Below, in pieces: positions 17,624 through 61,038 of a stretch of 64,000 nt of DNA. The notes under the pieces were generated by a model. The model searched no databases and had not been told where the DNA came from. It was given only the letters and a program-made list of their open reading frames with translations. Position numbers and translations under genes: made by a program. Every line of letters starts with the position of its first letter. Positions within the stretch are counted from its first letter, which is position 1. The stretch is from Minisyncoccia bacterium (GTDB lineage: Bacteria; Patescibacteriota; Minisyncoccia; Phycocordibacterales; UBA9973): positions 22,198 to 86,197 of the forward strand of contig JBAQFC010000008.1 of assembly GCA_049287045.1 (NCBI GenBank). Direction: 5' to 3'.

Positions 17624-19540
17624 TTATTTTGCAGCTTCGTCAGCGGCTGGAGTTTCACCCTCCTTAGAATCAGCTTCATGAGTAGTAGCTTCTTCTTTTG
17701 GCTCTACTGGTGGTGCACCGGCATCATCTACTTTAGAAGATGCTTTTGCCATCTCTTCACCGATCTTGGACATCTCGCTAGAAAGTTCTTCAGTAGATTT
17801 TTTAATTGCATCCAAATCTGAACCTTCTTTCACTCCACGCAATGCTGTTATTTTTTCTTCAACACCTTTCTTTGTATCTTCAGAGATTTTTCCTTCATTA
17901 TCTTTCAATGCTTTTTCTGCTGTAAAGATAGTCATGTCGGCTGTGTTTTTTGCATCAGCGACTTCTTTTTTCTTTTTATCTTCATCAGCATGAAGCTCTG
18001 CGTCTTCTTGCATTTTTTTAATATCTTCAGGTTTCAATCCAGAACTAGCTTCAATTCTGATAGTCTGAGTTTTACCACTAGTTTTTTCTTTCGCAGTAAC
18101 ATTTAAGATTCCATTGGCATCAACATCGAAAGTCACTTCAACTTGTGGCATACCACGAGGAGCTGGAGGAACACCGTCCAAGATAAATCTTCCTAGAGAT
18201 TTGTTATCAGAAGCCATTGGACGCTCTCCTTGCACGATATGAATTTCGACAGAAGTCTGATTGTCAGCTGCAGTTGAAAATGTTTGTGATTTTGAAGAAG
18301 GGATAGTTGTATTTCTTTCTACAAGTTTTGTCGCAACTCCTCCAAGTGTTTCGATACCCAAGGAAAGAGGAATAACATCAAGCAAAAGAACATCACGTAC
18401 ATCACCTTGCAATACTCCAGCTTGGACAGCAGCACCGAGAGCTACCACTTCATCAGGATTGATTGTAAGGTTTGGAGTTTTACCGAATAATTTCTTTATT
18501 TCTTCGACAATTTTTGGCATTCTGGTCTGTCCTCCGACCATTATGATTTCATTTATTTCTTCGATTTTAAATCCAGATGCTGCAACTGCACGCTTTGCAA
18601 TATCTATCGAACGAGTAATATATTCATCAGCAATAGATTCCAATTGAGCACGAGTCATTTTCAACAACAAGTGTTGAGGACCAGCTGCGGTGGAAGTTAT
18701 GAAAGGAATATTTATTTCAGTTTCAATAGCTGTTGAGAGTTCGATTTTTGCTTTTTCTGCAGCTTCATCAAGACGCTGCAATGCCAATGCATCAGTTCGT
18801 ACATCTACACCGGAAGTCTTTTTAAATTCATCAGCAATCCAATTTATAATTTTATGATCAATATCGCGTCCACCAAGGTGACTATCACCATCAGTAGATT
18901 TTACTTCAATAACATCATCACCAACTTCAAGAACAGAAATGTCAGTTGTTCCGCCTCCGAAATCGTAGACTACAATCTTTTCATTTTTCTTTGAGTTCAA
19001 ACCATAAGCCAATGCTGCAGCTGTCGGTTCATTGATAATTCTTTTTACAGTCAGGCCAGCAATTTTACCCGCATCAATAGTTGCTTGTCTTTGTGTGTCA
19101 TTAAAATATGCAGGTACAGTAATAATCGCTTCAGTGATCTTCTCACCGATCTTTGCTTCCACGTCTGTTTTTATTTTTGACAAAATCATCGCAGAAATTT
19201 CTTCTGGACGCATCCACTTGTCTCCGATTTTTACTTCAACTCCACCATTTGCGCCTTTCTGAATTTTGAAAGAAGCATTCTTTAAATCTTTCTGCACTTC
19301 CGGATCTTCAAAATTGTGACCCATAAAACGCTTGATACCATAGATGGTATTTTCAGGATTTGTAACTGCTTGTCTTTTTGCTAAAAGACCGACAAGTCTG
19401 TCTCCATTTTTTGCAACAGAAACTACCGAAGGAGTCGTACGAGCACCTTCAATATTTTCTATTATTTTTGGCGCACCACCTTCGATGATAGCGACCGCTG
19501 AGTTTGTTGTACCTAAGTCTATTCCTATTATTTTTGCCAT
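17624..19540 (-). CDS. dnaK: molecular chaperone DnaK (Hsp70)
   Basis: [18 protein letters not shown], full 638-aa Hsp70 with an acidic C-terminal tail. Confidence 0.95.
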
Positions 19541-19645
19541 AATTTTATTTTATTAAGTTTATAAGGTAAATTAAAATTAATTTTTTTAGAAAGTCTTGCA
19601 CAGGAGCTTAGAAAATAAAAATGGTATTCCATTTATTATTTTCTT

Positions 19646-19680
19646 GAGCGACGAGCAGTTCGCTGGCGAAGCTTCGCCAG
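19646..19680. promoter_or_regulatory. GC-rich tandem palindromes in the dnaK/paaX divergent intergenic region
   Basis: agcga-cgagcagt-tcgct, overlapped by the 18-nt perfect palindrome ctggcgaagcttcgccag. Further imperfect inverted repeats (tagcaagc...gcttgtca, ttgtcaaaagacaa) lie at 19747-19789. Confidence 0.3.
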
Positions 19681-19803
19681 ATAGATTGCTTTATAAAAAA
19701 AATTAATTTTAATGAACATAGACAATTATACACACCATATTATTTTTAGCAAGCTTTTCGTGGTCGCGGAATGCTTGTCAAAAGACAATATATAGGATAA
19801 TAT

Positions 19804-20343
19804 ATGAATATGTCAACTAAACCCGACTATTCCAAGAAAATACTTAAGATTTTAGGCGAAAAAACAGCTATTTCCCTGCCTGATTTAACTAATCAAGTAA
19901 ATAGTAAAGACTGCTCTCAAAGCTCCGTATACGCCATCACACGCTCATTAAAAGGGCTTCGTGAAGCTGGTCTGATAGAAAATATTTCCTCCGGGCAAAA
20001 TGATTATGCTCGCCTAACAAAAGAGGGCAAAAAGAAAATAAACAGCCTAAAGCTCGACAGTGACACCACCCTCGTTGATACTTCCTGGGACGGGTTTTGG
20101 AGAATTATTTTACTCGACTTACCAGAGACTAGAAAAAGCGAACGTGAATCTCTTCGTTATTTATTAAAAAAGGCTGGGTTCGTGTGTCTCAAAAATTCCG
20201 CATGGATCTCCCCTTACCCTTATGAACATCTTTTTGAAAACATCAAAAAAGATTTAGAGCTCACTACTGAGATGATGATAATAAAAACTCAATTCATCGA
20301 CGAAGAAACTAAAAAGTTTTTATTTGATACTTTCAAGAAATAA
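19804..20343 (+). CDS. PaaX-family transcriptional regulator (wHTH + Cas2-fold C-domain)
   Basis: C-terminal WDGFWRIILLDLPETRKSERESLRYLLKKAGFVCLKNSAWISPYP matches the PaaX_C signature (WDG.W.....IPE..R..R..LR..L...GF..L.NSVWISP). Confidence 0.6.
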   Translation: MNMSTKPDYSKKILKILGEKTAISLPDLTNQVNSKDCSQSSVYAITRSLKGLREAGLIENISSGQNDYARLTKEGKKKINSLKLDSDTTLVDTSWDGFWRIILLDLPETRKSERESLRYLLKKAGFVCLKNSAWISPYPYEHLFENIKKDLELTTEMMIIKTQFIDEETKKFLFDTFKK

Positions 20344-30768: not shown

Positions 30769-31887
30769 TTATATAACGACACCACCACCGAGGCAAACAT
30801 CTTTATCATAGAAAACGATAGATTGTCCTGGAGCAACGAGTACAGGTTTTTCAAAAATCACTTTTGCGGAAGTCGGACTTCCGCAAATTACTTGGCAAGG
30901 TAAAAATTCACCATGATAACGTACTTGAGCTGTATATTCTTTATTTTCATCTGGAGTGCCTGAGATCCAATTAATGTCACTAATTCTAATTTCTTCCCCT
31001 CCTTTTTGAGGAGGGGTGCTCTTTAGAGCGGGGTGGTGATTCTTTGAATTACCACCCCCAACCCCCTCCTTATTAAGGAGGGGGGAAATCTGTGACACAA
31101 TTATGATATTTTTCTTTACATCTTTACTAACAACATAATAAGCCCCATCATTCGGACCTTTTTTGGTAATGGTAAATCCATGTCTTTCACCTAGAGTCAG
31201 AAAAACAGCTCCGTCATGATATCCAATTTCTTCTCCTACCTCATTTAAAACTTTTCCCTTTTTCTCTTTAATATAATGTTTCAAAAAATCTTTCAAATCA
31301 ATATCACCTAGGAAGCAAATTCCCTGACTATCTTTCTTTTCTGCGACAGGTAATTTATATTTCTTTGCCAATTTTCTCACCGCTGTTTTATTCAAATGCC
31401 CTACGGGAAACAAAATATGTTTTAGTTGTTCTTGTTTTAATGTCCACAAGAAATAACATTGGTCTTTGGACGGATCAATGCCTTTAACTAATTTTTTTTC
31501 TAAAACTTGTGCATAATGCCCAGTCGCTACATAATCTGCACCCATTTCTAGAGCCTTTTTCAAGAAAGCACCGAATTTCACTTCTTTGTTGCACATAACA
31601 TCTGGGTTCGGAGTACGTCCCATTTTATACTCAGCAATCATATAGTCTGCGACTTCTTTTTTGTAAACATCTGAAAGGTCAAAAGTTAAAAATGGAATAT
31701 CCAAATGAGCCGCAACGCGCATAGCGTCGCGGCGCTCATCTTCTTCATTACAAACCAAAAAATCAGGGTGCCAGGTACGAATAAAGACCCCGACGACATC
31801 ATGTCCTTGATCTTTTAAAATTGCAGCGGAAACAGAAGAATCCACTCCGCCTGACATTCCTACAAATATTGTCTTTTTCTTCTTCAT
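30769..31887 (-). CDS. mnmA: tRNA 2-thiouridine(34) synthase MnmA (carries in-frame palindromic insertions)
   Basis: PP-loop SGGVDSS, catalytic cysteines, C-terminal beta-barrel. Contains the 90-bp GC-rich element at 30996-31085 and the 25-nt palindrome at 30863-30887, both in frame. Confidence 0.85.
   Translation of the reverse strand: MKKKKTIFVGMSGGVDSSVSAAILKDQGHDVVGVFIRTWHPDFLVCNEEDERRDAMRVAAHLDIPFLTFDLSDVYKKEVADYMIAEYKMGRTPNPDVMCNKEVKFGAFLKKALEMGADYVATGHYAQVLEKKLVKGIDPSKDQCYFLWTLKQEQLKHILFPVGHLNKTAVRKLAKKYKLPVAEKKDSQGICFLGDIDLKDFLKHYIKEKKGKVLNEVGEEIGYHDGAVFLTLGERHGFTITKKGPNDGAYYVVSKDVKKNIIIVSQISPLLNKEGVGGGNSKNHHPALKSTPPQKGGEEIRISDINWISGTPDENKEYTAQVRYHGEFLPCQVICGSPTSAKVIFEKPVLVAPGQSIVFYDKDVCLGGGVVI
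30863..30887. repeat. 25-nt palindrome tttgcggaagtcggacttccgcaaa (copy 1, inside mnmA)
   Basis: Near-identical to the palindrome at 39662-39688; encodes GSPTSAKVIF in frame. Confidence 0.5.
30996..31085. repeat. GC-rich triple stem-loop element inserted in frame in mnmA
   Basis: Three consecutive hairpins: cccctcc/ggagggg (30996-31016), ggggtggt/accacccc (31030-31058), ccccctcc/ggaggggg (31062-31084). The ~65% GC contrasts with the AT-rich surroundings. Encodes ISPLLNKEGVGGGNSKNHHPALKSTPPQKGGEE without stops. Confidence 0.6.
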
Positions 31888-54555: not shown

Positions 54556-55923
54556 CTAATTATACCACTTTTTTAGTTTGGTCAAAATTTGAGACAAAGC
54601 CTTTAGTGTGTAGTCAATATCTGCTTTAGTTGTCTGTCTGCCAAGAGAAAATCTGATTGATCCATCAATTTCTTTATTAACCAATAACTCCCCTAACTGT
54701 GCTTCACGGATAGCTTGTATTACATGAGAAGCCTTTTCATCACCTGATTTACAAGCACTTTTGACAGAGGCCATAATTCCATGAGCAGAAAGTTCGATTA
54801 CCAAAAGATCACTTGGAATTTTTGGAATCGTGATGTTTATATTGTTAGGTAGTCTGTTTTTTAGGTCACCATTTAAAATTACTTTCCCCGAAACCAGGTT
54901 TAGGGGAAAATCCCCTAAACCTGGTTTCTGGAAATGTGTAGTGTCAAGGCTTAACCTTGACATTTTTTTAATAAAATAATCACGAAGTTTAATTAAACGT
55001 TTTACTTCTTTGTCTTTTATTTGTTCAACAGTTTTTAAAGCTTTTGCTAGTCCGACAATCCCGACAATATTTTCTGTCCCTGGTCTTAATCCAAATTCTT
55101 GGTCACCACCAAATATAATATTAGTGATAGGTGTCATTCTTTTTATATACAAAACCCCAACACCACTAGGCCCATAAATTTTTGATCCATTAAATGAAAA
55201 CAAATCAACACCAAGTTTTTCAACATTGATTGATAAATAGTTTATTGCTTGTGTGGCGTCGGTATGAAAAACTGGAAAAATACCAAGGTCGGACCTTTCT
55301 AAATTCTTAAGGTCCGACCTTTTTGCAACTTTATTTTTTCGATAATGACGAATCTCTTTTGCAATTTCTCTTATTGGTTGAATCGTACCAATCTCATTAT
55401 TTGCGTACATTACAGAAACCAAAATCGTATTTGATTTTAATGCTTTTTTAATTTTCTCGGGATCTACTATTCCATTTTCTTCTACTGGCACATAAGTCAC
55501 TTCTATTTGTTTTGTTTTTTCTAAATGTTTACACACTTCCAGAACGGAAGCATGTTCTATATTCGTGGTGATTATATGAGGAATAATTTTTCGAGTATTT
55601 TTTGAAATGCCTTGCGCAGGCTGACGAGCCGAGCAGAGCAATTTGCCAGCAGGCAAATATGTGTGCATTTGAAAAAATGACTCGTAAAATTTATTAATCA
55701 CACCAAGTAGAGCCAAATTATTACTCTCTGTTGCACCAGAGGTAAAAACCACTTCATTAGAGTGTGCACCTAAAATCTTGGCAATTTCTTCTCTTACTTC
55801 ATTCAGTTGTTTTTTCGCTTTCACACCAAAATCGTGAATTGCTCCAGGATTAGCAGGATTAGCTGAAGCACCACTGGCATAATCCATATATATATTCTTT
55901 GATTTTTTGATTGATTTAACCAT
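54556..55923 (-). CDS. cysteine desulfurase (NifS/IscS family) carrying two in-frame repeat-element insertions
   Basis: PLP-lysine region FNGSKIYGPSGVGVLY and the active-site Cys loop SVKSACKSG. Two extra segments, encoded by the repeats at 55600-55677 and 54889-54929, interrupt otherwise IscS-like sequence. Confidence 0.8.
   Translation of the reverse strand: MVKSIKKSKNIYMDYASGASANPANPGAIHDFGVKAKKQLNEVREEIAKILGAHSNEVVFTSGATESNNLALLGVINKFYESFFQMHTYLPAGKLLCSARQPAQGISKNTRKIIPHIITTNIEHASVLEVCKHLEKTKQIEVTYVPVEENGIVDPEKIKKALKSNTILVSVMYANNEIGTIQPIREIAKEIRHYRKNKVAKRSDLKNLERSDLGIFPVFHTDATQAINYLSINVEKLGVDLFSFNGSKIYGPSGVGVLYIKRMTPITNIIFGGDQEFGLRPGTENIVGIVGLAKALKTVEQIKDKEVKRLIKLRDYFIKKMSRLSLDTTHFQKPGLGDFPLNLVSGKVILNGDLKNRLPNNINITIPKIPSDLLVIELSAHGIMASVKSACKSGDEKASHVIQAIREAQLGELLVNKEIDGSIRFSLGRQTTKADIDYTLKALSQILTKLKKWYN
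54889..54929. repeat. perfect 18-bp-stem hairpin element in frame inside the cysteine desulfurase gene
   Basis: gaaaccaggtttagggg-aaaa-tcccctaaacctggtttc encodes QKPGLGDFPLNLVSG; a second small hairpin, caagg-cttaa-ccttg, follows at 54945-54959. Confidence 0.55.
55600..55677. repeat. 75-nt structured repeat, copy A (in frame within the cysteine desulfurase gene)
   Basis: aaatgccttgcgcaggctgacgagccgagcagagcaa + 18-nt hairpin + atgtgtgcattt, bounded by the inverted ends tttgaaatgc/gcatttgaaa. 49 of ~75 nt are identical to copy B at 58720-58795. Confidence 0.6.
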
Positions 55924-55947
55924 TAAAATAGTATATATTGAAAAGGC

Positions 55948-56409
55948 ATGAATATAAAGCTCGAGATCGCTTTTTTTATTTTAACTGGAATTTCCGTCAT
56001 TGTTGGCGTTATTTGGGTTATAAAAACAGAGAAAAGATTGAAAAGATTTTTTGTTGGTAAAAAAGCAAAAGATTTAGAGGATACTATCATCGCGCTAGAA
56101 AGTGACCTTGCTAACTTAATAAAAATAAAAGAGGAACACGAAAAAGAAATTATTGAGATAAATGCAAAATTAAGAAAAAGTATTCGTGGACTCGAGACTG
56201 TTCGTTTCAATCCTTTTCCAGATCAAGGTAGCAACCAAAGTTTCGCAATAGGATTATTAAATGAAGATGGAGATGGTGTCGTCCTTTCTAGTTTGTATTC
56301 CCGTGAGAGAATGAGTGTTTTTGCTAAGCCTATTAAAAAAGGAAAATCAGAATACGAATTAACAAACGAAGAAAAAGAAATACTAAAAAAAGCTGAAGTA
56401 AAACAATAA
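55948..56409 (+). CDS. hypothetical membrane-anchored coiled-coil protein
   Basis: N-terminal TM, a coiled coil, and a conserved-looking C-terminal domain (RFNPFPDQGSNQSFAIGLL...). Its stop overlaps the infB start. Confidence 0.4.
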   Translation: MNIKLEIAFFILTGISVIVGVIWVIKTEKRLKRFFVGKKAKDLEDTIIALESDLANLIKIKEEHEKEIIEINAKLRKSIRGLETVRFNPFPDQGSNQSFAIGLLNEDGDGVVLSSLYSRERMSVFAKPIKKGKSEYELTNEEKEILKKAEVKQ

Positions 56410-57905
56410 TGAAAAATAAAACAGAAAACATAATAGAACGTCCACCGATAGTAGTAGTCATGGGTCATATCGACCATGGTAAATCTACGTTGCTGGACTA
56501 TATCAGAAAGACAAATATTGTCGACCGTGAAGCTGGAGGAATTACTCAGCATATTTCTGCATATGAAGTTATTCACAAAGACGAACATGGCAAAGATAAA
56601 AAAATTACTTTCTTAGATACTCCAGGACACGAAGCTTTTTCAAAAATGCGTGAACGTGGAGCAGAGGCAGCTGATATAGCTATTCTAGTTGTTTCAGCAG
56701 AAGACGGAGTAAAGCCACAAACCATAGAAGCTTATAAAACAATCCTTGAAAGTAAGATTCCTTTTATTGTAGCTATTAATAAAATAGACCGCCCAGCTGC
56801 TAATATCGAAAAGACAAAAATGGAACTGGCTGAAAATGAAATATATGTTGAAGGATACGGAGGCAAAACACCTGTCGCTGAGATTTCTGCAAAAGTTGGT
56901 ACTGGAGTAGATAATCTTTTAACTCTAATTCTCCTTATTGCTGAGATGGAAGAATTTACAGCAAATACGGAGGAAGGAGCAACGGGATATGTTATCGAAG
57001 CAAACTTAGATCCAAAGAGAGGAATCCAAGCTACTTTAATTATTAAAAATGGAAAACTTAAAAATGGTATGACTGTGGCAGTAGAAGATGCTTTATGTTC
57101 TACCCGTATCATGGAAAACTTTTTAGGAAAAATGGTTAAGGATGCTAGTTTTTCCTCCCCTGTTCGACTAGTTGGCTTTAGTAAAGTTCCAAAAGTTGGA
57201 GCAATGTTTAAAGCTTTCGAAAAGAAAGGTGATGCTGAAGAATACGCAAAAGAAATATTAAATAAAAAAATAACCAAAAATGAAAAGAGAGAGATAAGTG
57301 ATAAAAAAATGATTCCAATAGTTTTGCGTGCAGATGTCATGGGATCTATTGAAGCAATCGAAAAAGAAATAAAAAAAATACAAAGTGAAGGTGCAGAATT
57401 CAAAATAATCCAGAAAGGTGTCGGACCTATTACTGAGTCCGATATTAAATCATCCCAGGGTTCAGAAATCATTGTAATCGGGTTTAATGTAAAAGCAGAC
57501 AGAGGTGCCAATGACTTAGCTATAAAGCAAAACATTCCAATTCTATTTTTCGATATCATTTACAAAATGACAGAATGGTTGACAGAAGAAATGGAAAAGA
57601 GACGCCCTAGAGTAGAAACAATCGAAGTTACCGGACGAGCTAAGATAATCAAAGCTTTCAGCCGTACCAAGGAACGCCAAGTTGTCGGAGGAAAAGTTAC
57701 TGAAGGAAATATCTCTCTTGGTGAAACAGTTAAAATAATTCGTCGTGAGTTTGAAATAGGTAAAGGTAGAATCGTAAACCTAGAAAAATTCAAATCAAAA
57801 ACAAACAAAGTAGAAGAAGGTTCAGAATTTGGTACTATGATCGAATCAAAGATTGAGATAGTAGCAGGAGACATTCTTGAGTCGTTTTCAATAACACAAA
57901 AATAA
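56409..57905 (+). CDS. infB: translation initiation factor IF-2 (short form without the long N-terminal region)
   Basis: G domain ([24 protein letters not shown]) plus the C-terminal beta-barrel domains; 498 aa. Confidence 0.9.
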
Positions 57906-57906
57906 T

Positions 57907-58230
57907 ATGATCCCACGAAACGAAAAAATAGCACAATTTGTAAAAGAGCTTGCTGCTCAGTTTTTGGCACGCGAGAACAATAATACCTCACTCATAACTG
58001 TTACTTCATGCAACACCTCCCCTGACATGAAACGTGCAACTATATTTATCACTGTGCTCCCTGAATCAAAAGAGAAGCTGGCATTGGAATTCGCAAAACG
58101 CAGAAGAGCAGACCTACGAGACTTCTTGAAAAAGAATATGGAAGTAAAAACAATCCCATTTATTGATATTGAGATAGATAAAGGAGAAAAAAATAGACAA
58201 AGAATTGACGAACTGCTTCGAGAAAAGTAA
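57907..58230 (+). CDS. rbfA: ribosome-binding factor A
   Basis: 107-aa KH-like protein directly downstream of infB (conserved infB-rbfA order). Confidence 0.65.
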   Translation: MIPRNEKIAQFVKELAAQFLARENNNTSLITVTSCNTSPDMKRATIFITVLPESKEKLALEFAKRRRADLRDFLKKNMEVKTIPFIDIEIDKGEKNRQRIDELLREK

Positions 58231-58258
58231 GATAGATAGGCGTTGGTTGTGCGCCTAC

Positions 58259-58330
58259 GGCCTGGTAGCCAAGTGGTAAGGCATTCCTCTGCAAAAGGAA
58301 TATACGGCGGTTCGATTCCGCCCCAGGCCT
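58259..58330 (+). tRNA. tRNA-Cys (anticodon GCA)
   Basis: Acceptor GGCCTGG/CCAGGCC, anticodon stem TTCCT/AGGAA with loop CTGCAAA, T arm GGCGG-TTCGATT-CCGCC. Confidence 0.8.
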
Positions 58331-58360
58331 CAAGTGTAATTTGAAAAAAGAATCATATTT

Positions 58361-58430
58361 GCCCGGATGGATAAAAATCAAACTGCTTTGATTTTTATCC
58401 GAACAAAGTGAGGAGGCCGTCATCCGGGCA
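58361..58430 (+). ncRNA. tRNA-like structured element sharing the tRNA-Leu acceptor stem (pseudo-tRNA or small RNA)
   Basis: 5' gcccggatgg and 3' catccgggca duplicate the acceptor/D start of tRNA-Leu(TAA) located 48 nt downstream. The interior is replaced by a perfect 14-bp hairpin, ggataaaaatcaaa-ctgc-tttgatttttatcc, plus aaagtgaggaggccgt. Confidence 0.35.
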
Positions 58431-58477
58431 ATGGTTTTGTTTACAAAATTTAAAATATGAAATATATTTTAAAAATT

Positions 58478-58559
58478 GCCCGGATGGCGGAATTGGTATA
58501 CGCGCACGACTTAAAATCGTGTCTCGCAAGGGATGTGGGTTCGACCCCCACTCCGGGCA
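58478..58559 (+). tRNA. tRNA-Leu (anticodon TAA)
   Basis: Acceptor GCCCGGA/TCCGGGC, anticodon stem CACGA/TCGTG with loop CTTAAAA, long variable arm, T arm GTGGG-TTCGACC-CCCAC. Confidence 0.8.
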
Positions 58560-58624
58560 CAAGACATATTGAAAATAAAATAAATATGTTAAAGTAGAAA
58601 GTAAGTTTTTATATTTGTTTTTAT

Positions 58625-58697
58625 GCACCCATAACTCAGCTGGTAGAGTAGCTCCCTCTTAAGGAGAATGTCGGAGGTTCGATCCCTCCTGGGTGCA
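58625..58697 (+). tRNA. tRNA-Lys (anticodon CTT)
   Basis: Acceptor GCACCCA/TGGGTGC, anticodon loop CTCTTAA, T arm GGAGG-TTCGATC-CCTCC. Confidence 0.7.
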
Positions 58698-58719
58698 CAC
58701 ACGAGAGAAAGAAAATGTT

Positions 58720-58795
58720 TTTAAAATGCCTTGCGCAGGCTGACGAGCCGAGCAGAGCAAAAATTCAGCAGAATTTTATGTGTGCATTTTAAAAA
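58720..58795. repeat. 75-nt structured repeat, copy B (intergenic, between tRNA-Lys and tRNA-Leu)
   Basis: Identical 37-nt and 12-nt blocks to copy A. The internal hairpin aaaattc-agca-gaatttt differs from copy A (atttgcc-agca-ggcaaat) by compensatory changes that keep a 7-bp stem and the AGCA loop. Perfect terminal inverted ends ttttaaaatgc/gcattttaaaa. Confidence 0.6.
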
Positions 58796-58862
58796 TTTTT
58801 TCTTACTCTCGTGTTTGATTTATTATCAAAAGAAAGCTATTCTATATAGTAATCGAAAAAAT

Positions 58863-58944
58863 GCCGGGATGGCGGAATTGGTATACGCGCTAGTCTTAGG
58901 AACTAGTGGGGCAACCCTTGGGAGTTCGAGTCTCCCTCCCGGCA
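58863..58944 (+). tRNA. tRNA-Leu (anticodon TAG)
   Basis: Acceptor GCCGGGA/TCCCGGC, anticodon stem CTAGT/ACTAG with loop CTTAGGA (G37), long variable arm, T arm. Confidence 0.75.
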
Positions 58945-58987
58945 CAATGTTTATAAGCTTTAATAGGCTTGACTTTTAAATTTATAT

Positions 58988-59802: not shown

Positions 59803-59859
59803 GCTTATATATGCTATACTTTATAAATAATAAGTTGTTTGAAAACAGGTTAGAAAAAT

Positions 59860-59921
59860 AGTTATGTTCAGCAAAGATGCTCAGTCCCCTTTTACACTGA
59901 GCCGTTTCGCTGAACATAACT
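59860..59921 (+). promoter_or_regulatory. 62-nt extended imperfect hairpin in the 5' leader of the SPFH operon
   Basis: Outer 13-bp stem agttatgttcagc/gctgaacataact and inner 7-bp stem gctcagt/actgagc, 40 nt upstream of the AGGAG RBS and ATG at 59962. Confidence 0.35.
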
Positions 59922-59961
59922 ATTAATTAAACTAATCTAAAATAAAAAGGAGAAACAAAAA

Positions 59962-61038
59962 ATGACAGCACTAATTACATTTGCCATCTTAGCGATATTA
60001 TCACTAGGTTGGTTAGGCTTTACTTTGCTTTTAAAGCAATTGGGAAAAAATGACACTCACTTTACAGAACTTACAAAAGAAACTGGTAAAGGTGTTGTAA
60101 AGGGAAAGAACGTTGTAAACTTATTATTTAATTCCAAAAATGGTTTCTATGACAAAGAAGGAAACTGGAAGGAATGCAAAGACAACGAAGGAAACTTTAT
60201 ATGCAGACCACAAAATTTAGGTTCTTTGTTTGAAAAACTTGGCATAACCTTCTTTGGGTTAAGTCCAATTAATGAAATCCTTAAATTTAAAGTTTATCAA
60301 AATGATGAACAATTTGAAGAACATACATCTTTCAAGCATCTCTATGACTTTAGAATCATAGTAAAGGAAGTTGAATTATTGGGTGGTGAAATTAAAATAG
60401 ATTTAGATCTAAAGTTTAGGTTTAAGGTAATGAATATTACCAAACTGCTCTTTCTCTCACAACCTGATGGAATCACAATCTACAAAGCTTCAGCTGACAT
60501 AGAAACAGCTGTCAACAATTTTGTGAGAAATAAAGAATGGGATGCGTTTGAAAAAGCAGACAAAACAAGTAAAGATTCTGATTTTATCAGACAAATTACT
60601 GAATCCATTAATGAAACCACATTAAGAACCCTAGGAATAGAGGTTGATAGTATGAAACTTGCAAACTATGGCATAAGCAAAGGTCCATCAAATGAAGAAG
60701 TAGATAAATCGCTTTCTGAAAATTTAATAGCGGAAAACGAAGGAAAAGCTCTGATTACGAGATCAGAGACCGCAGCCAAGGTTTTGGAAATTAAAACCAA
60801 TTCTGAAGGCAAGGCCTTAATCGACAGCGCTAAATTTGCAAAAGATGCACACATACTTACGACAGAAGCTGAAGCACACCGCTTTGGTGAGATGAGTAAA
60901 GTTGCAAAGAAAAATCCTGGGATAATCCCGTTTATGAATTTGGAACAAGTGAAAGAGACACAGATACGTGTCCTTGGAGCTAATGTAATATCCACCATTA
61001 ATGTTGATGGTGATGAAACTAAAAAGGAGGGAAAATAA
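59962..61038 (+). CDS. SPFH/Band-7 (flotillin/HflK-like) domain membrane protein
   Basis: N-terminal TM, a central SPFH-like region, and C-terminal Ala/Glu/Lys-rich helical repeats (AENEGKALITRSETAAKVLEI...). Confidence 0.5.
   Translation: MTALITFAILAILSLGWLGFTLLLKQLGKNDTHFTELTKETGKGVVKGKNVVNLLFNSKNGFYDKEGNWKECKDNEGNFICRPQNLGSLFEKLGITFFGLSPINEILKFKVYQNDEQFEEHTSFKHLYDFRIIVKEVELLGGEIKIDLDLKFRFKVMNITKLLFLSQPDGITIYKASADIETAVNNFVRNKEWDAFEKADKTSKDSDFIRQITESINETTLRTLGIEVDSMKLANYGISKGPSNEEVDKSLSENLIAENEGKALITRSETAAKVLEIKTNSEGKALIDSAKFAKDAHILTTEAEAHRFGEMSKVAKKNPGIIPFMNLEQVKETQIRVLGANVISTINVDGDETKKEGK

Follow-up and report, generated by a model that had tools for sequence, protein, structure and literature searches.

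The question raised by the 64-kb window considered here (the whole stretch of 64,000 nucleotides from contig JBAQFC010000008.1 of a Minisyncoccia bacterium) is why one structured piece of DNA should occur twice on its + strand, once read in frame within a cysteine desulfurase gene (copy A) and once inside a cluster of tRNA genes (copy B). The original prediction, made from the letters of the window, took both to be copies of a 75-nt hairpin element with inverted termini that behaves like the Rickettsia palindromic elements (RPEs). It is probable, though far from certain, that copies A and B are members of a family of structured palindromic insertion elements, ~100–130 nt long, which is dispersed in the Patescibacteria, mainly Paceibacteria/Parcubacteria. 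What is conserved among the members is the fold of one strand, namely that carrying CUGACGAGCCGAGCAGAGCAA, and not the peptide.

Both copies were found where they had been placed (55600–55677 and 58720–58795), with copy B lying between tRNA-Lys and tRNA-Leu. They have a 66-nt core in common, in which a 37-nt block is identical between the two as claimed (55605–55641 and 58724–58760), and a second identical block (55658–55670 and 58777–58789) is 13 nt long instead of the 12 nt first counted. A 33-nt pattern of the core has exactly two occurrences in the window, where zero are expected (100 shuffles). The length of 75 nt was too small, however, as the stem runs on outwards for ~25–34 bp, with outer sequences that differ between A and B while complementarity is kept. 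The fold, moreover, is a three-way junction on a long stem instead of a hairpin with inverted termini. The features concerned are as follows:

~55583–55692, + strand: copy A, full element; outer stem P1 and three-way-junction core; antisense to the desulfurase gene, translated in frame
55605–55670, + strand: copy A core, 66 nt, with the inner part of P1, aaatgc/gcattt (55605–55610 / 55665–55670)
55612–55615 / 55633–55636, + strand: copy A P2a, ttgc/gcag
55616–55618 and 55631–55632, + strand: copy A internal loop of P2, gca and ga
55619–55630, + strand: copy A P2b, ggct/agcc, with loop gacg
55638–55662, + strand: copy A P3, gca-atttgcc-agca-ggcaaat-a-tgt
54556–55923, − strand: gene in which copy A lies, for a cysteine desulfurase of NifS/IscS type with 455 aa (from the open reading frame (ORF) and comparison with solved structures)
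58696–58817, + strand: copy B, full element; an inverted repeat with 34-nt outer arms that begins at the 3′ end of tRNA-Lys and is sense with respect to the tRNA cluster
58724–58789, + strand: copy B core, 66 nt, in which P3 is aaaattc-agca-gaatttt
58625–58698, + strand: tRNA-Lys(ctt), directly upstream of copy B
58863–58945, + strand: tRNA-Leu(tag), downstream of copy B

The full hairpin was predicted to fold at −43.7 kcal/mol for copy A (z −5.4) and −50.1 kcal/mol for copy B (z −7.9), and a covariance model scored the two at 103 and 102 bits, respectively. In the internal 18-nt hairpin (atttgcc-agca-ggcaaat in copy A, aaaattc-agca-gaatttt in copy B), every position of the 7-bp stem differs between the copies with pairing kept, giving seven compensated positions. 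The compensatory change originally noticed in this hairpin is therefore real, and among the relatives described below covariation extends to all of the helices.

Relatives of the two copies were first collected with an exact 19-mer of the core (GACGAGCCGAGCAGAGCAA), which was searched in genomes, metagenomes and viral contigs and matched 25 genome loci and 61 metagenome loci, with zero matches in the viral contigs. Five of the genome matches and about 12 of the metagenome matches, located in GC-rich organisms (Bradyrhizobium etc.), were rejected as chance, the rest of the element being missing there, and ~54 distinct copies were left. Since an exact search fixes the 19-mer by construction, a covariance model was built and used to search the fetched DNA, which gave further diverged copies lacking the 19-mer and up to three copies inside 8–14 kb in relatives L008 and L072. 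In total, ~65 distinct relatives were recovered. All were from Patescibacteria, the hosts being, according to the labels of the metagenome-assembled genomes (MAGs), Paceibacterota, Zambryski-, Nomura- and some ‘Saccharibacteria’-labelled MAGs. The wider search proposed with the original prediction thus returned more copies in the window and in many genomes, which removes the concern that the pair might stand alone. The additional candidate in the window is probably a diverged third copy:

19577–19706, + strand: probable third, diverged copy, between dnaK (17624–19540, − strand) and the ORF at 19804–20343 (+ strand), upstream of dnaK

The ends of its P1 and P2a are as in the subtype of L005 and L059, its P3 is different and a 48-nt AT-rich hairpin is nested within P2b. 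It scored 33 bits (E 2e-9) with default filters as against 10 bits with filters off, the lower score being due to this hairpin nested in P2. On either strand, only tRNAs reached the gathering threshold in a search of Rfam 15 and nothing overlapped any copy; in permissive searches no match was obtained for the window copies at E ≤ 10 or for diverged copies at E ≤ 0.5. Text searches of the literature for palindromic, miniature inverted-repeat and in-frame elements of the candidate phyla radiation (CPR) found no description of it, and the family is apparently undescribed.

In the element, a long stem (P1) with an outer part peculiar to each locus is topped by a conserved three-way junction with junction strands of only 1–2 nt. 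Within the junction, P2 has an internal loop of the form G-N-A / G-A and, at its apex, a GACG-type loop, and P3 is a freely covarying hairpin of 6–9 bp; the central 66 nt are not palindromic. In a first alignment P3 was paired in all 46 sequences, with both-side changes at six positions. A second alignment of 64 distinct sequences, which was fitted to the covariance model itself, had 97.4% of its cells paired compared with 75.0% after shuffling, a value reached in none of 500 shuffles. Both-side changes were present at 24 of its 26 pairs, across all five helices, and its covariation score was 0.569 against ≤ 0.13 for partners slid by 1–3 columns, kinship among the sequences being ignored in both figures. 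Independent single-sequence folds of diverged copies showed the same architecture. The variants of P2b (GGCU/AGCC, GGCG/CGCC, GCGC/GCGC, GGGC/GCCC, GCAC/GUGC and GACAU/AUGUC) and of P2a (CUUGC/GCAG, CUCUC/GAGAG and GCC/GGC) appeared in such copies. Conserved though unpaired are the internal loop of P2, its GACG-type loop and the junction bases.

The strand that folds can be told from its wobble pairs, which are strongly one-sided, with 130 G-U against 6 A-C, or 39 against 6 once two near-constant wobble columns are left out. The U-G pair at P2a is present in 56 of 62 sequences and the G-U/G-C at the base of P3 also persists. In addition, it is on the + strand that the outer stem has the greater stability in 44 of 49 copies. 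The asymmetry goes with the element and not with the gene: in fmt the sense strand is favoured, and in the desulfurase gene the antisense strand. A strand-specific fold of this kind favours a single-stranded form, either RNA or single-stranded DNA (ssDNA).

The in-frame reading of copy A on the − strand, within the 455-aa ORF, is ...FYESFFQMHTYLPAGKLLCSARQPAQGISKNTRKI..., as the original prediction had it, and the exact host protein is annotated at NCBI as a cysteine desulfurase. Compared with solved NifS/IscS structures, this protein has three extra segments, at aa ~80–113 (copy A), ~192–217 and ~325–346. In an alignment of 120 CPR orthologs (370–484 aa) these three sites proved to be insertion hot spots, which hold many different insert peptides and at which identical peptide types reappear from one site to another. 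The copy-A peptide HTYLPAGKLLCSARQPAQGIS or a variant of it was found in 14 of the 120 orthologs; the segment is absent from the other 106 and from every solved desulfurase compared. In relative L019, the genome of which is 90–97% identical, a different perfect 24-bp palindrome encoding the peptide SPYVRHRGVSPMSDIGA occupies exactly the site of copy A, and only the N-terminal flank is retained (RKYFETF, corresponding to NKFYESFF in the window):

L019 (reverse complement) 2831–2919 versus window 55584–55711: palindrome at desulfurase site 1; unaligned block between the relatives

Given this replacement and the lack of the segment in solved structures and most orthologs, copy A is an insertion and not an ancestral protein segment. 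All three antisense frames of copy A are open. Its P3 variant leaves the desulfurase frame open, whereas that of copy B would bring a stop codon into it, so that the compensated difference between the two copies has been shaped jointly by pairing and by the reading frame. It should also be noted that the desulfurase region is 90% identical between the window and L019 and the neighbouring genes ~97%, which suggests that allelic replacement by recombination may have taken place there.

The other two hot spots of this desulfurase gene are occupied as well. At hot spot 3 there is a second in-frame palindrome (54881–54937, in the − strand gene) with 27-nt arms, a 3-nt loop and a fold of −50 kcal/mol, which encodes ..HFQKPGLGDFPLNLVSG... 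and is not present in the solved homologues or in most orthologs. At hot spot 2, a third in-frame hairpin (~55283–55320, same gene), AAGGTCGGACCTT..AAGGTCCGACCTT, encodes KRSDLKNLERSDLG; its ‘KRSDL..RSDL’ peptide type also occurs at other sites, in the desulfurases P0067 and P0099 and the Fmt orthologs P0190 and P0192, and on account of this recurrence the hairpin is taken as another dispersed palindrome family. At least 6–7 more recurrent insert-peptide families were seen in the three desulfurase loops, examples being CALPRVRVGTL, FSRVLGLGPDQLEN, LLxKERVGER, AGLAGVGDPxNRGPEK, FFSGFPATQRQ, YPYLASPYSRGRKKEG and FLRSSEKIPRPFKNL, and one family can occupy different loops. On these sequences, it seems that a whole set of hairpin elements lying in frame is harboured by CPR genomes.

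The element itself was also found in frame in four other proteins. It is antisense in the desulfurase gene and sense in the genes for Fmt, TsaD, RNase R and a RecG-like protein, where the sense copies invariably read LAQADEPSRA..QQ..MR; the insertions in TsaD and RNase R were mapped against solved homologues. In Fmt a long insert is present at one site, between QPEK.. and DFFLVVAYG, in ~111 of 120 Paceibacteria orthologs (62–83% identical), with peptides that are very different between clades (TLAQADEPSRAIFQQENMRGE, TLGRSDGDGQRKFSAENFRGE, GLASDGEPASGIFKLQKFRTE and SIAQGDGPSIAIRQQADMCGF). At the level of DNA, the three-way junction on a long stem is kept in seven of the eight insert-bearing orthologs examined, with stems that differ and are compensated, and the sense strand is favoured (−39 to −66 kcal/mol versus −32 to −50 for the antisense). 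In a rare ‘empty’ ortholog the site has no such structure (−11 kcal/mol). Removal of the in-gene copies by splicing or bypass was considered and is unlikely, because one arm encodes conserved native residues (e.g. DFFLV of Fmt) and the frames are open in more than 100 orthologs. In one Fmt ortholog (P0219, L094 1501–2442) half of the element has been replaced; the 3′ part ..KNMRGE is kept, and the 5′ part is another GC-rich hairpin (RGSHSEGEGRRGEK..), pointing to nested or replacing insertions at the Fmt site.

Most copies are intergenic, and ~25 unrelated contexts were counted in all. Some 20 of these are spacers, which the element fills, including rbfA|tRNA-Cys, tRNA-Lys|tRNA-Leu, recR|VKOR-like, RNase H|ComEC and ftsZ|trxB, and other intergenic copies adjoin tRNA-Gly, ligA, leuS, map, uvrD and dnaK. 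Filled, empty and replaced states of a site were all seen among relatives. For example, L010 has an empty tRNA-Lys|tRNA-Leu spacer, which is filled in L008, L019, L057 and the window. Opposite orientations of the element were found in different genomes at the recR|VKOR and RNase H|ComEC spacers. The best evidence for movement over descent is a subtype of ~105 nt (AAATAGTCTTTGAAAAATGCC...GCATTTTGAGAAGAGCTATTT), which is located at the unrelated rbfA|tRNA-Cys, RNase H|ComEC, map and ftsZ|trxB spacers in different genomes. Concerted evolution within a genome was ruled out, since P3 sequences track the locus and not the genome (the desulfurase lineage has ATT(T/C)GCC). No clear signal of a replication-strand bias was obtained either, with multi-copy loci on the same strand in six cases and mixed in five.

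The stem arms give a further indication of how the element may have come to its sites. In every one of the gene cases, native residues can be recognised in what one arm of P1 encodes, and the other arm is the reverse complement of the first. In the desulfurase the native arm reads NKFYESF and its copy SKNTRKI; in Fmt the native arm reads (P)DFFLV and an imperfect copy with G-U pairs reads NQKEVW. The native arms of TsaD (LAEENRK) and RNase R (SYEEAQNLLD) correspond to LAKEGKK and AYSEAQGVIEG, respectively, in solved homologues. A fixed polarity with a native 3′ arm was ruled out, as the native arm is the 3′ arm of the element in two cases and the 5′ arm in the other two (TsaD and RNase R). Scar-like orthologs with one arm only were also found (NKFTELF-VPHIV and NKNTQFIF-PHII; P0238 versus P0127). 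It is suspected that, once the core has been inserted or copied into DNA rich in AT, a fold-back or template-switch copying step converts or adds one flank as the partner strand of the stem. In genes, the survivors would be those insertions which are in frame, contain no stop codons and lie in tolerant loops. The active form may be the single-stranded + strand, most simply an RNA transcript, which could serve either as a substrate for propagation or as a processing or stability structure.

In favour of a mobile and largely selfish element are its mixed orientation, the many contexts in which it occurs and its turnover between close relatives. That it has been retained over the long term, with wobble pairs that are fixed and loops that are conserved, speaks for use as a single strand, with RNA as the simplest candidate and room for a host function. 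Several observations weigh against the reading as mobile DNA. Filled and empty sites, when compared, show an inverted copy of one flank and no direct target-site duplication; there are no conserved terminal repeats, the outer arms varying by locus and the conserved part being central; and no gene for a transposase, reverse transcriptase or HUH enzyme was seen among the neighbours of the copies, though no dedicated search for RAYT or TnpA was made. Mobility is consequently inferred from distribution only. The Fmt and tRNA-Lys|tRNA-Leu copies appear to be inherited vertically over deep divergence with the fold retained, which is more typical of an element useful to the host than of decaying selfish DNA. 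The copy number is modest, at 2–3 per 64 kb in the window. That the 19-mer stretch of the core hardly varies among the copies collected first is partly built in by the exact search, and the mixed orientation relative to host transcription (~15 sense, 7 antisense) is awkward for a role purely at the RNA level.

The strongest of the alternatives, held to be unlikely and yet deserving serious consideration, is that of a structured RNA module useful to the host, inherited mainly vertically under purifying selection, with the in-gene copies as tolerated or exapted passengers. Possible roles for such an RNA include a protein-binding or processing/stability signal, an RNase III-type site that splits tRNA precursors, protection of the 3′ end or termination. 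It would explain why the insert persists in ~111/120 Fmt orthologs, with the fold kept at 7/8 loci as the peptide changes completely, and why the tRNA-Lys|tRNA-Leu copy is kept in four cases (window, L019, L008 and L057) despite their strong divergence. As is typical of functional RNAs, unpaired nucleotides are conserved and wobble pairs fixed; the fold is one-stranded and the sense orientation is somewhat commoner. It fits poorly, however, with the antisense copy in the desulfurase gene and with both orientations at identical spacers; no single cis function predicts ~25 unrelated contexts with presence, absence and replacement in close relatives; and a duplex of ~30 bp within essential mRNAs would be costly if cleaved. 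Nor did promoter or terminator signals exceed chance, as no excess over shuffles was found within the element. A scan with a terminator consensus gave none at copy A or B; several intergenic copies do have T-rich runs 3′ of them, as does much of this AT-rich DNA.

It is quite improbable that the element is purely a DNA palindrome, in which hairpin-templated replication errors re-perfect the inverted repeats and extend them into the flanks, with no part for RNA. Correction of quasi-palindromes by template switching is an established mutational process, and it would account for outer stems that are locus-specific, near-perfect and composed of native flank plus inverted copy, on one side or the other; the same protein hot spots also contain many further palindromes that are simple and perfect. 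Self-correction should, on the other hand, erase wobbles and asymmetric loops, and the U-G pair of P2a (56/62), the G-U/G-C at the base of P3 and the G-N-A/G-A loop all persist. Neither the excess of G-U over A-C pairs (130 versus 6) on one strand, whatever the orientation of the gene, nor a central 66 nt that is not palindromic follows from such a process. A self-correcting palindrome thus accounts for the perfect outer stems and not for the strand asymmetry or the conserved core.

It is very improbable that the element belongs to an RNA class already known, be it a small self-cleaving ribozyme (hammerhead-like or other), the aptamer of a riboswitch or an SRP- or tRNA-like RNA. The three-way junction with conserved loops invites the comparison, and CUGACGAG resembles the CUGANGA box of the hammerhead, but the junction strands of 1–2 nt and the lack of a GAAA box after P2 speak against it, CUGACGA lies within the stem and loop of P2b, the stem part of CUGACGAG covaries away in relatives and the Rfam search gave no match. 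By eye, readings as SRP RNA, k-turn or tRNA-like core were likewise rejected, on the basis of multiple copies per genome, the wrong bases beside the 3-nt loop for a k-turn and, again, the Rfam result. Finally, the chance that copy A is an ancestral functional part of the desulfurase and copy B a chance match or pseudogene fragment is next to nil: HTYLPAGKLLCSARQPAQGIS is indeed more conserved than the remaining protein among the 14 orthologs having it, but the segment is missing in all solved homologues and in 106/120 orthologs, a 90–97% identical relative has another palindrome in its place, four other proteins have the same DNA in another frame and orientation, and most copies are intergenic.

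As a family of dispersed insertion elements, copies A and B and their relatives can be compared with several known systems. RPEs are palindromic repeats of 100–150 bp located between genes and in frame within housekeeping genes (Ogata et al., 2000, summarised by PMC1779305 and PMC3184786), and some are old and clade-wide, for example that in PheT of Rickettsia (PMC1779305, PMC3184786). The present element is similar in its size (~110–122 nt), its long hairpin, its small, AT-rich and reduced host genome, its ~65 distinct copies, its presence both in spacers and in frame inside housekeeping proteins, its old clade-wide insert (Fmt) and its lack, shared with RPEs, of a known transposase. The RPE-like behaviour first predicted is therefore borne out by copies of both kinds (PMC1779305), with the likeness being one of analogy. 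It differs in its hosts, which are Patescibacteria and not Rickettsiales, in an apparently lower copy number, in having as its conserved part an asymmetric central three-way junction beneath which the terminal stem is locus-specific and partly host-derived, and in its one-strand fold constraint with compensatory change, RPEs being compared by their description. By analogy only, it may be regarded as an RPE analogue in behaviour and not as a member of an RPE family.

MITEs (miniature inverted-repeat transposable elements) have conserved terminal inverted repeats, direct target-site duplications and a variable centre (PMC3184786), and those such as Correia/NEMIS, ERIC, Nezha, RUP and BOX form long stem-loops as RNA, are often co-transcribed and are sometimes fused to ORFs (PMC3184786). 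In common with these, the present element is a small, non-autonomous repeat that folds into a long stem-loop; unlike them, its termini vary, its centre is conserved and no direct duplication was seen. The hairpins of Correia and ERIC are RNase targets. Strand-specific imperfect hairpins recognised as single strands are also known from repetitive extragenic palindromes (REPs), their bacterial interspersed mosaic elements (BIMEs) and IS200/IS605-type ends, which are substrates of RAYT and TnpA-Y1. Here too the hairpin is strand-specific and imperfect, and its structure and a few bases are what matter. REP/BIME units, however, measure ~35 nt, have a conserved 5′ tetranucleotide and are extragenic with hundreds of copies, as opposed to a three-way junction of ~110 nt that also lies inside ORFs and has 2–3 copies per 64 kb. 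The GC clusters of yeast mitochondria and the double-hairpin elements of Allomyces are GC-rich structured mini-elements of AT-rich genomes, about 30–80 nt long, which like the present element have a two-hairpin core, occupy spacers and occasionally lie in frame in protein genes. To our knowledge they have no mobilising enzyme and no comparable evidence of clade-wide retention with covariation. They are organellar, much shorter and without the long locus-specific stem. PARCELs (palindromic amphipathic repeat coding elements) are palindromic, translated within proteins and distributed horizontally among microbes with small genomes, and consist of tandem protein-repeat modules under selection at the peptide level (PMC2996958). 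The element shares with them palindromic DNA translated within the proteins of such microbes, and differs in that no constraint falls on the peptide and it is the fold of the nucleic acid that is kept.

The anatomy of the element is unlike that of MITEs, REPs and, as documented, RPEs, in that it has an asymmetric conserved centre, host-derived termini, a one-strand fold and retention of this fold over deep divergence. It is tentatively proposed, and on balance doubtful, that these are a new class of one-strand structured element, mobile or recruited by the host, whose fold is selected even within translated coding sequence throughout a bacterial class and whose long stem is made by inverted copying of a flank. 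If so, a machinery for recognition or propagation of a single strand (RNA or ssDNA), distinct from those of MITEs, REPs and RPEs, would be implied in the CPR. Should the flank-copying signature represent the chemistry of insertion, it would be an undescribed way of moving DNA; should the element instead be a host RNA module, it would be a structured RNA that is both new and widespread and for which Rfam has no family. The CPR/Patescibacteria make up a large share of bacterial diversity, with poorly known biology and tiny genomes that have little room for passengers, and here an element conserved as a fold lies in essential genes (fmt, tsaD, rnr and the desulfurase gene) and in tRNA operons. 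It would account for part of the puzzling length variation and ‘insertions’ of CPR proteins and calls for caution among annotators and structure predictors, as such protein segments are nucleic-acid features. It is also a tractable example of how selection on the structure of RNA or ssDNA acts through a sequence that is translated.

Some other features of the same regions were observed. In the tRNA cluster of the window, a ~105-nt segment (~58360–58465) between tRNA-Cys and tRNA-Leu(taa) is missing in the near-identical L019. It starts with TGCCCGGATGG, a duplicate of the 5′ end of tRNA-Leu, has a fold in which GCCCGGATG.../...CATCCGGGC enclose a perfect AT hairpin of 14 bp, and had no match in Rfam or ARAGORN. 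This segment may have been inserted recently or may be a tRNA duplicated in part. At ~240–330 of L018 a fragment resembling the 5′ half of tRNA-Cys (GGCCTGGCAGCCAAATGG...) appears to be located upstream of the intact tRNA-Cys, a sign that the same tRNA cluster may have undergone local duplication or rearrangement. Elsewhere in the window, paired GC-rich hairpins (CCCCTCCTT...AAGGAGGGG) are present at 30996–31083, and a similar hairpin (CCCTCTCC..GGAGAGGG) fills the rbfA|tRNA-Cys spacer at ~1400–1470 of L008; hairpins of the CCCCTCCTT/CCCTCTCC type are possibly another family of spacer elements. Lastly, an inverted repeat with 29-nt arms (86% complementary) and a 10-nt loop was found at 59857–59924, just upstream of the ORF at 59962–61038.

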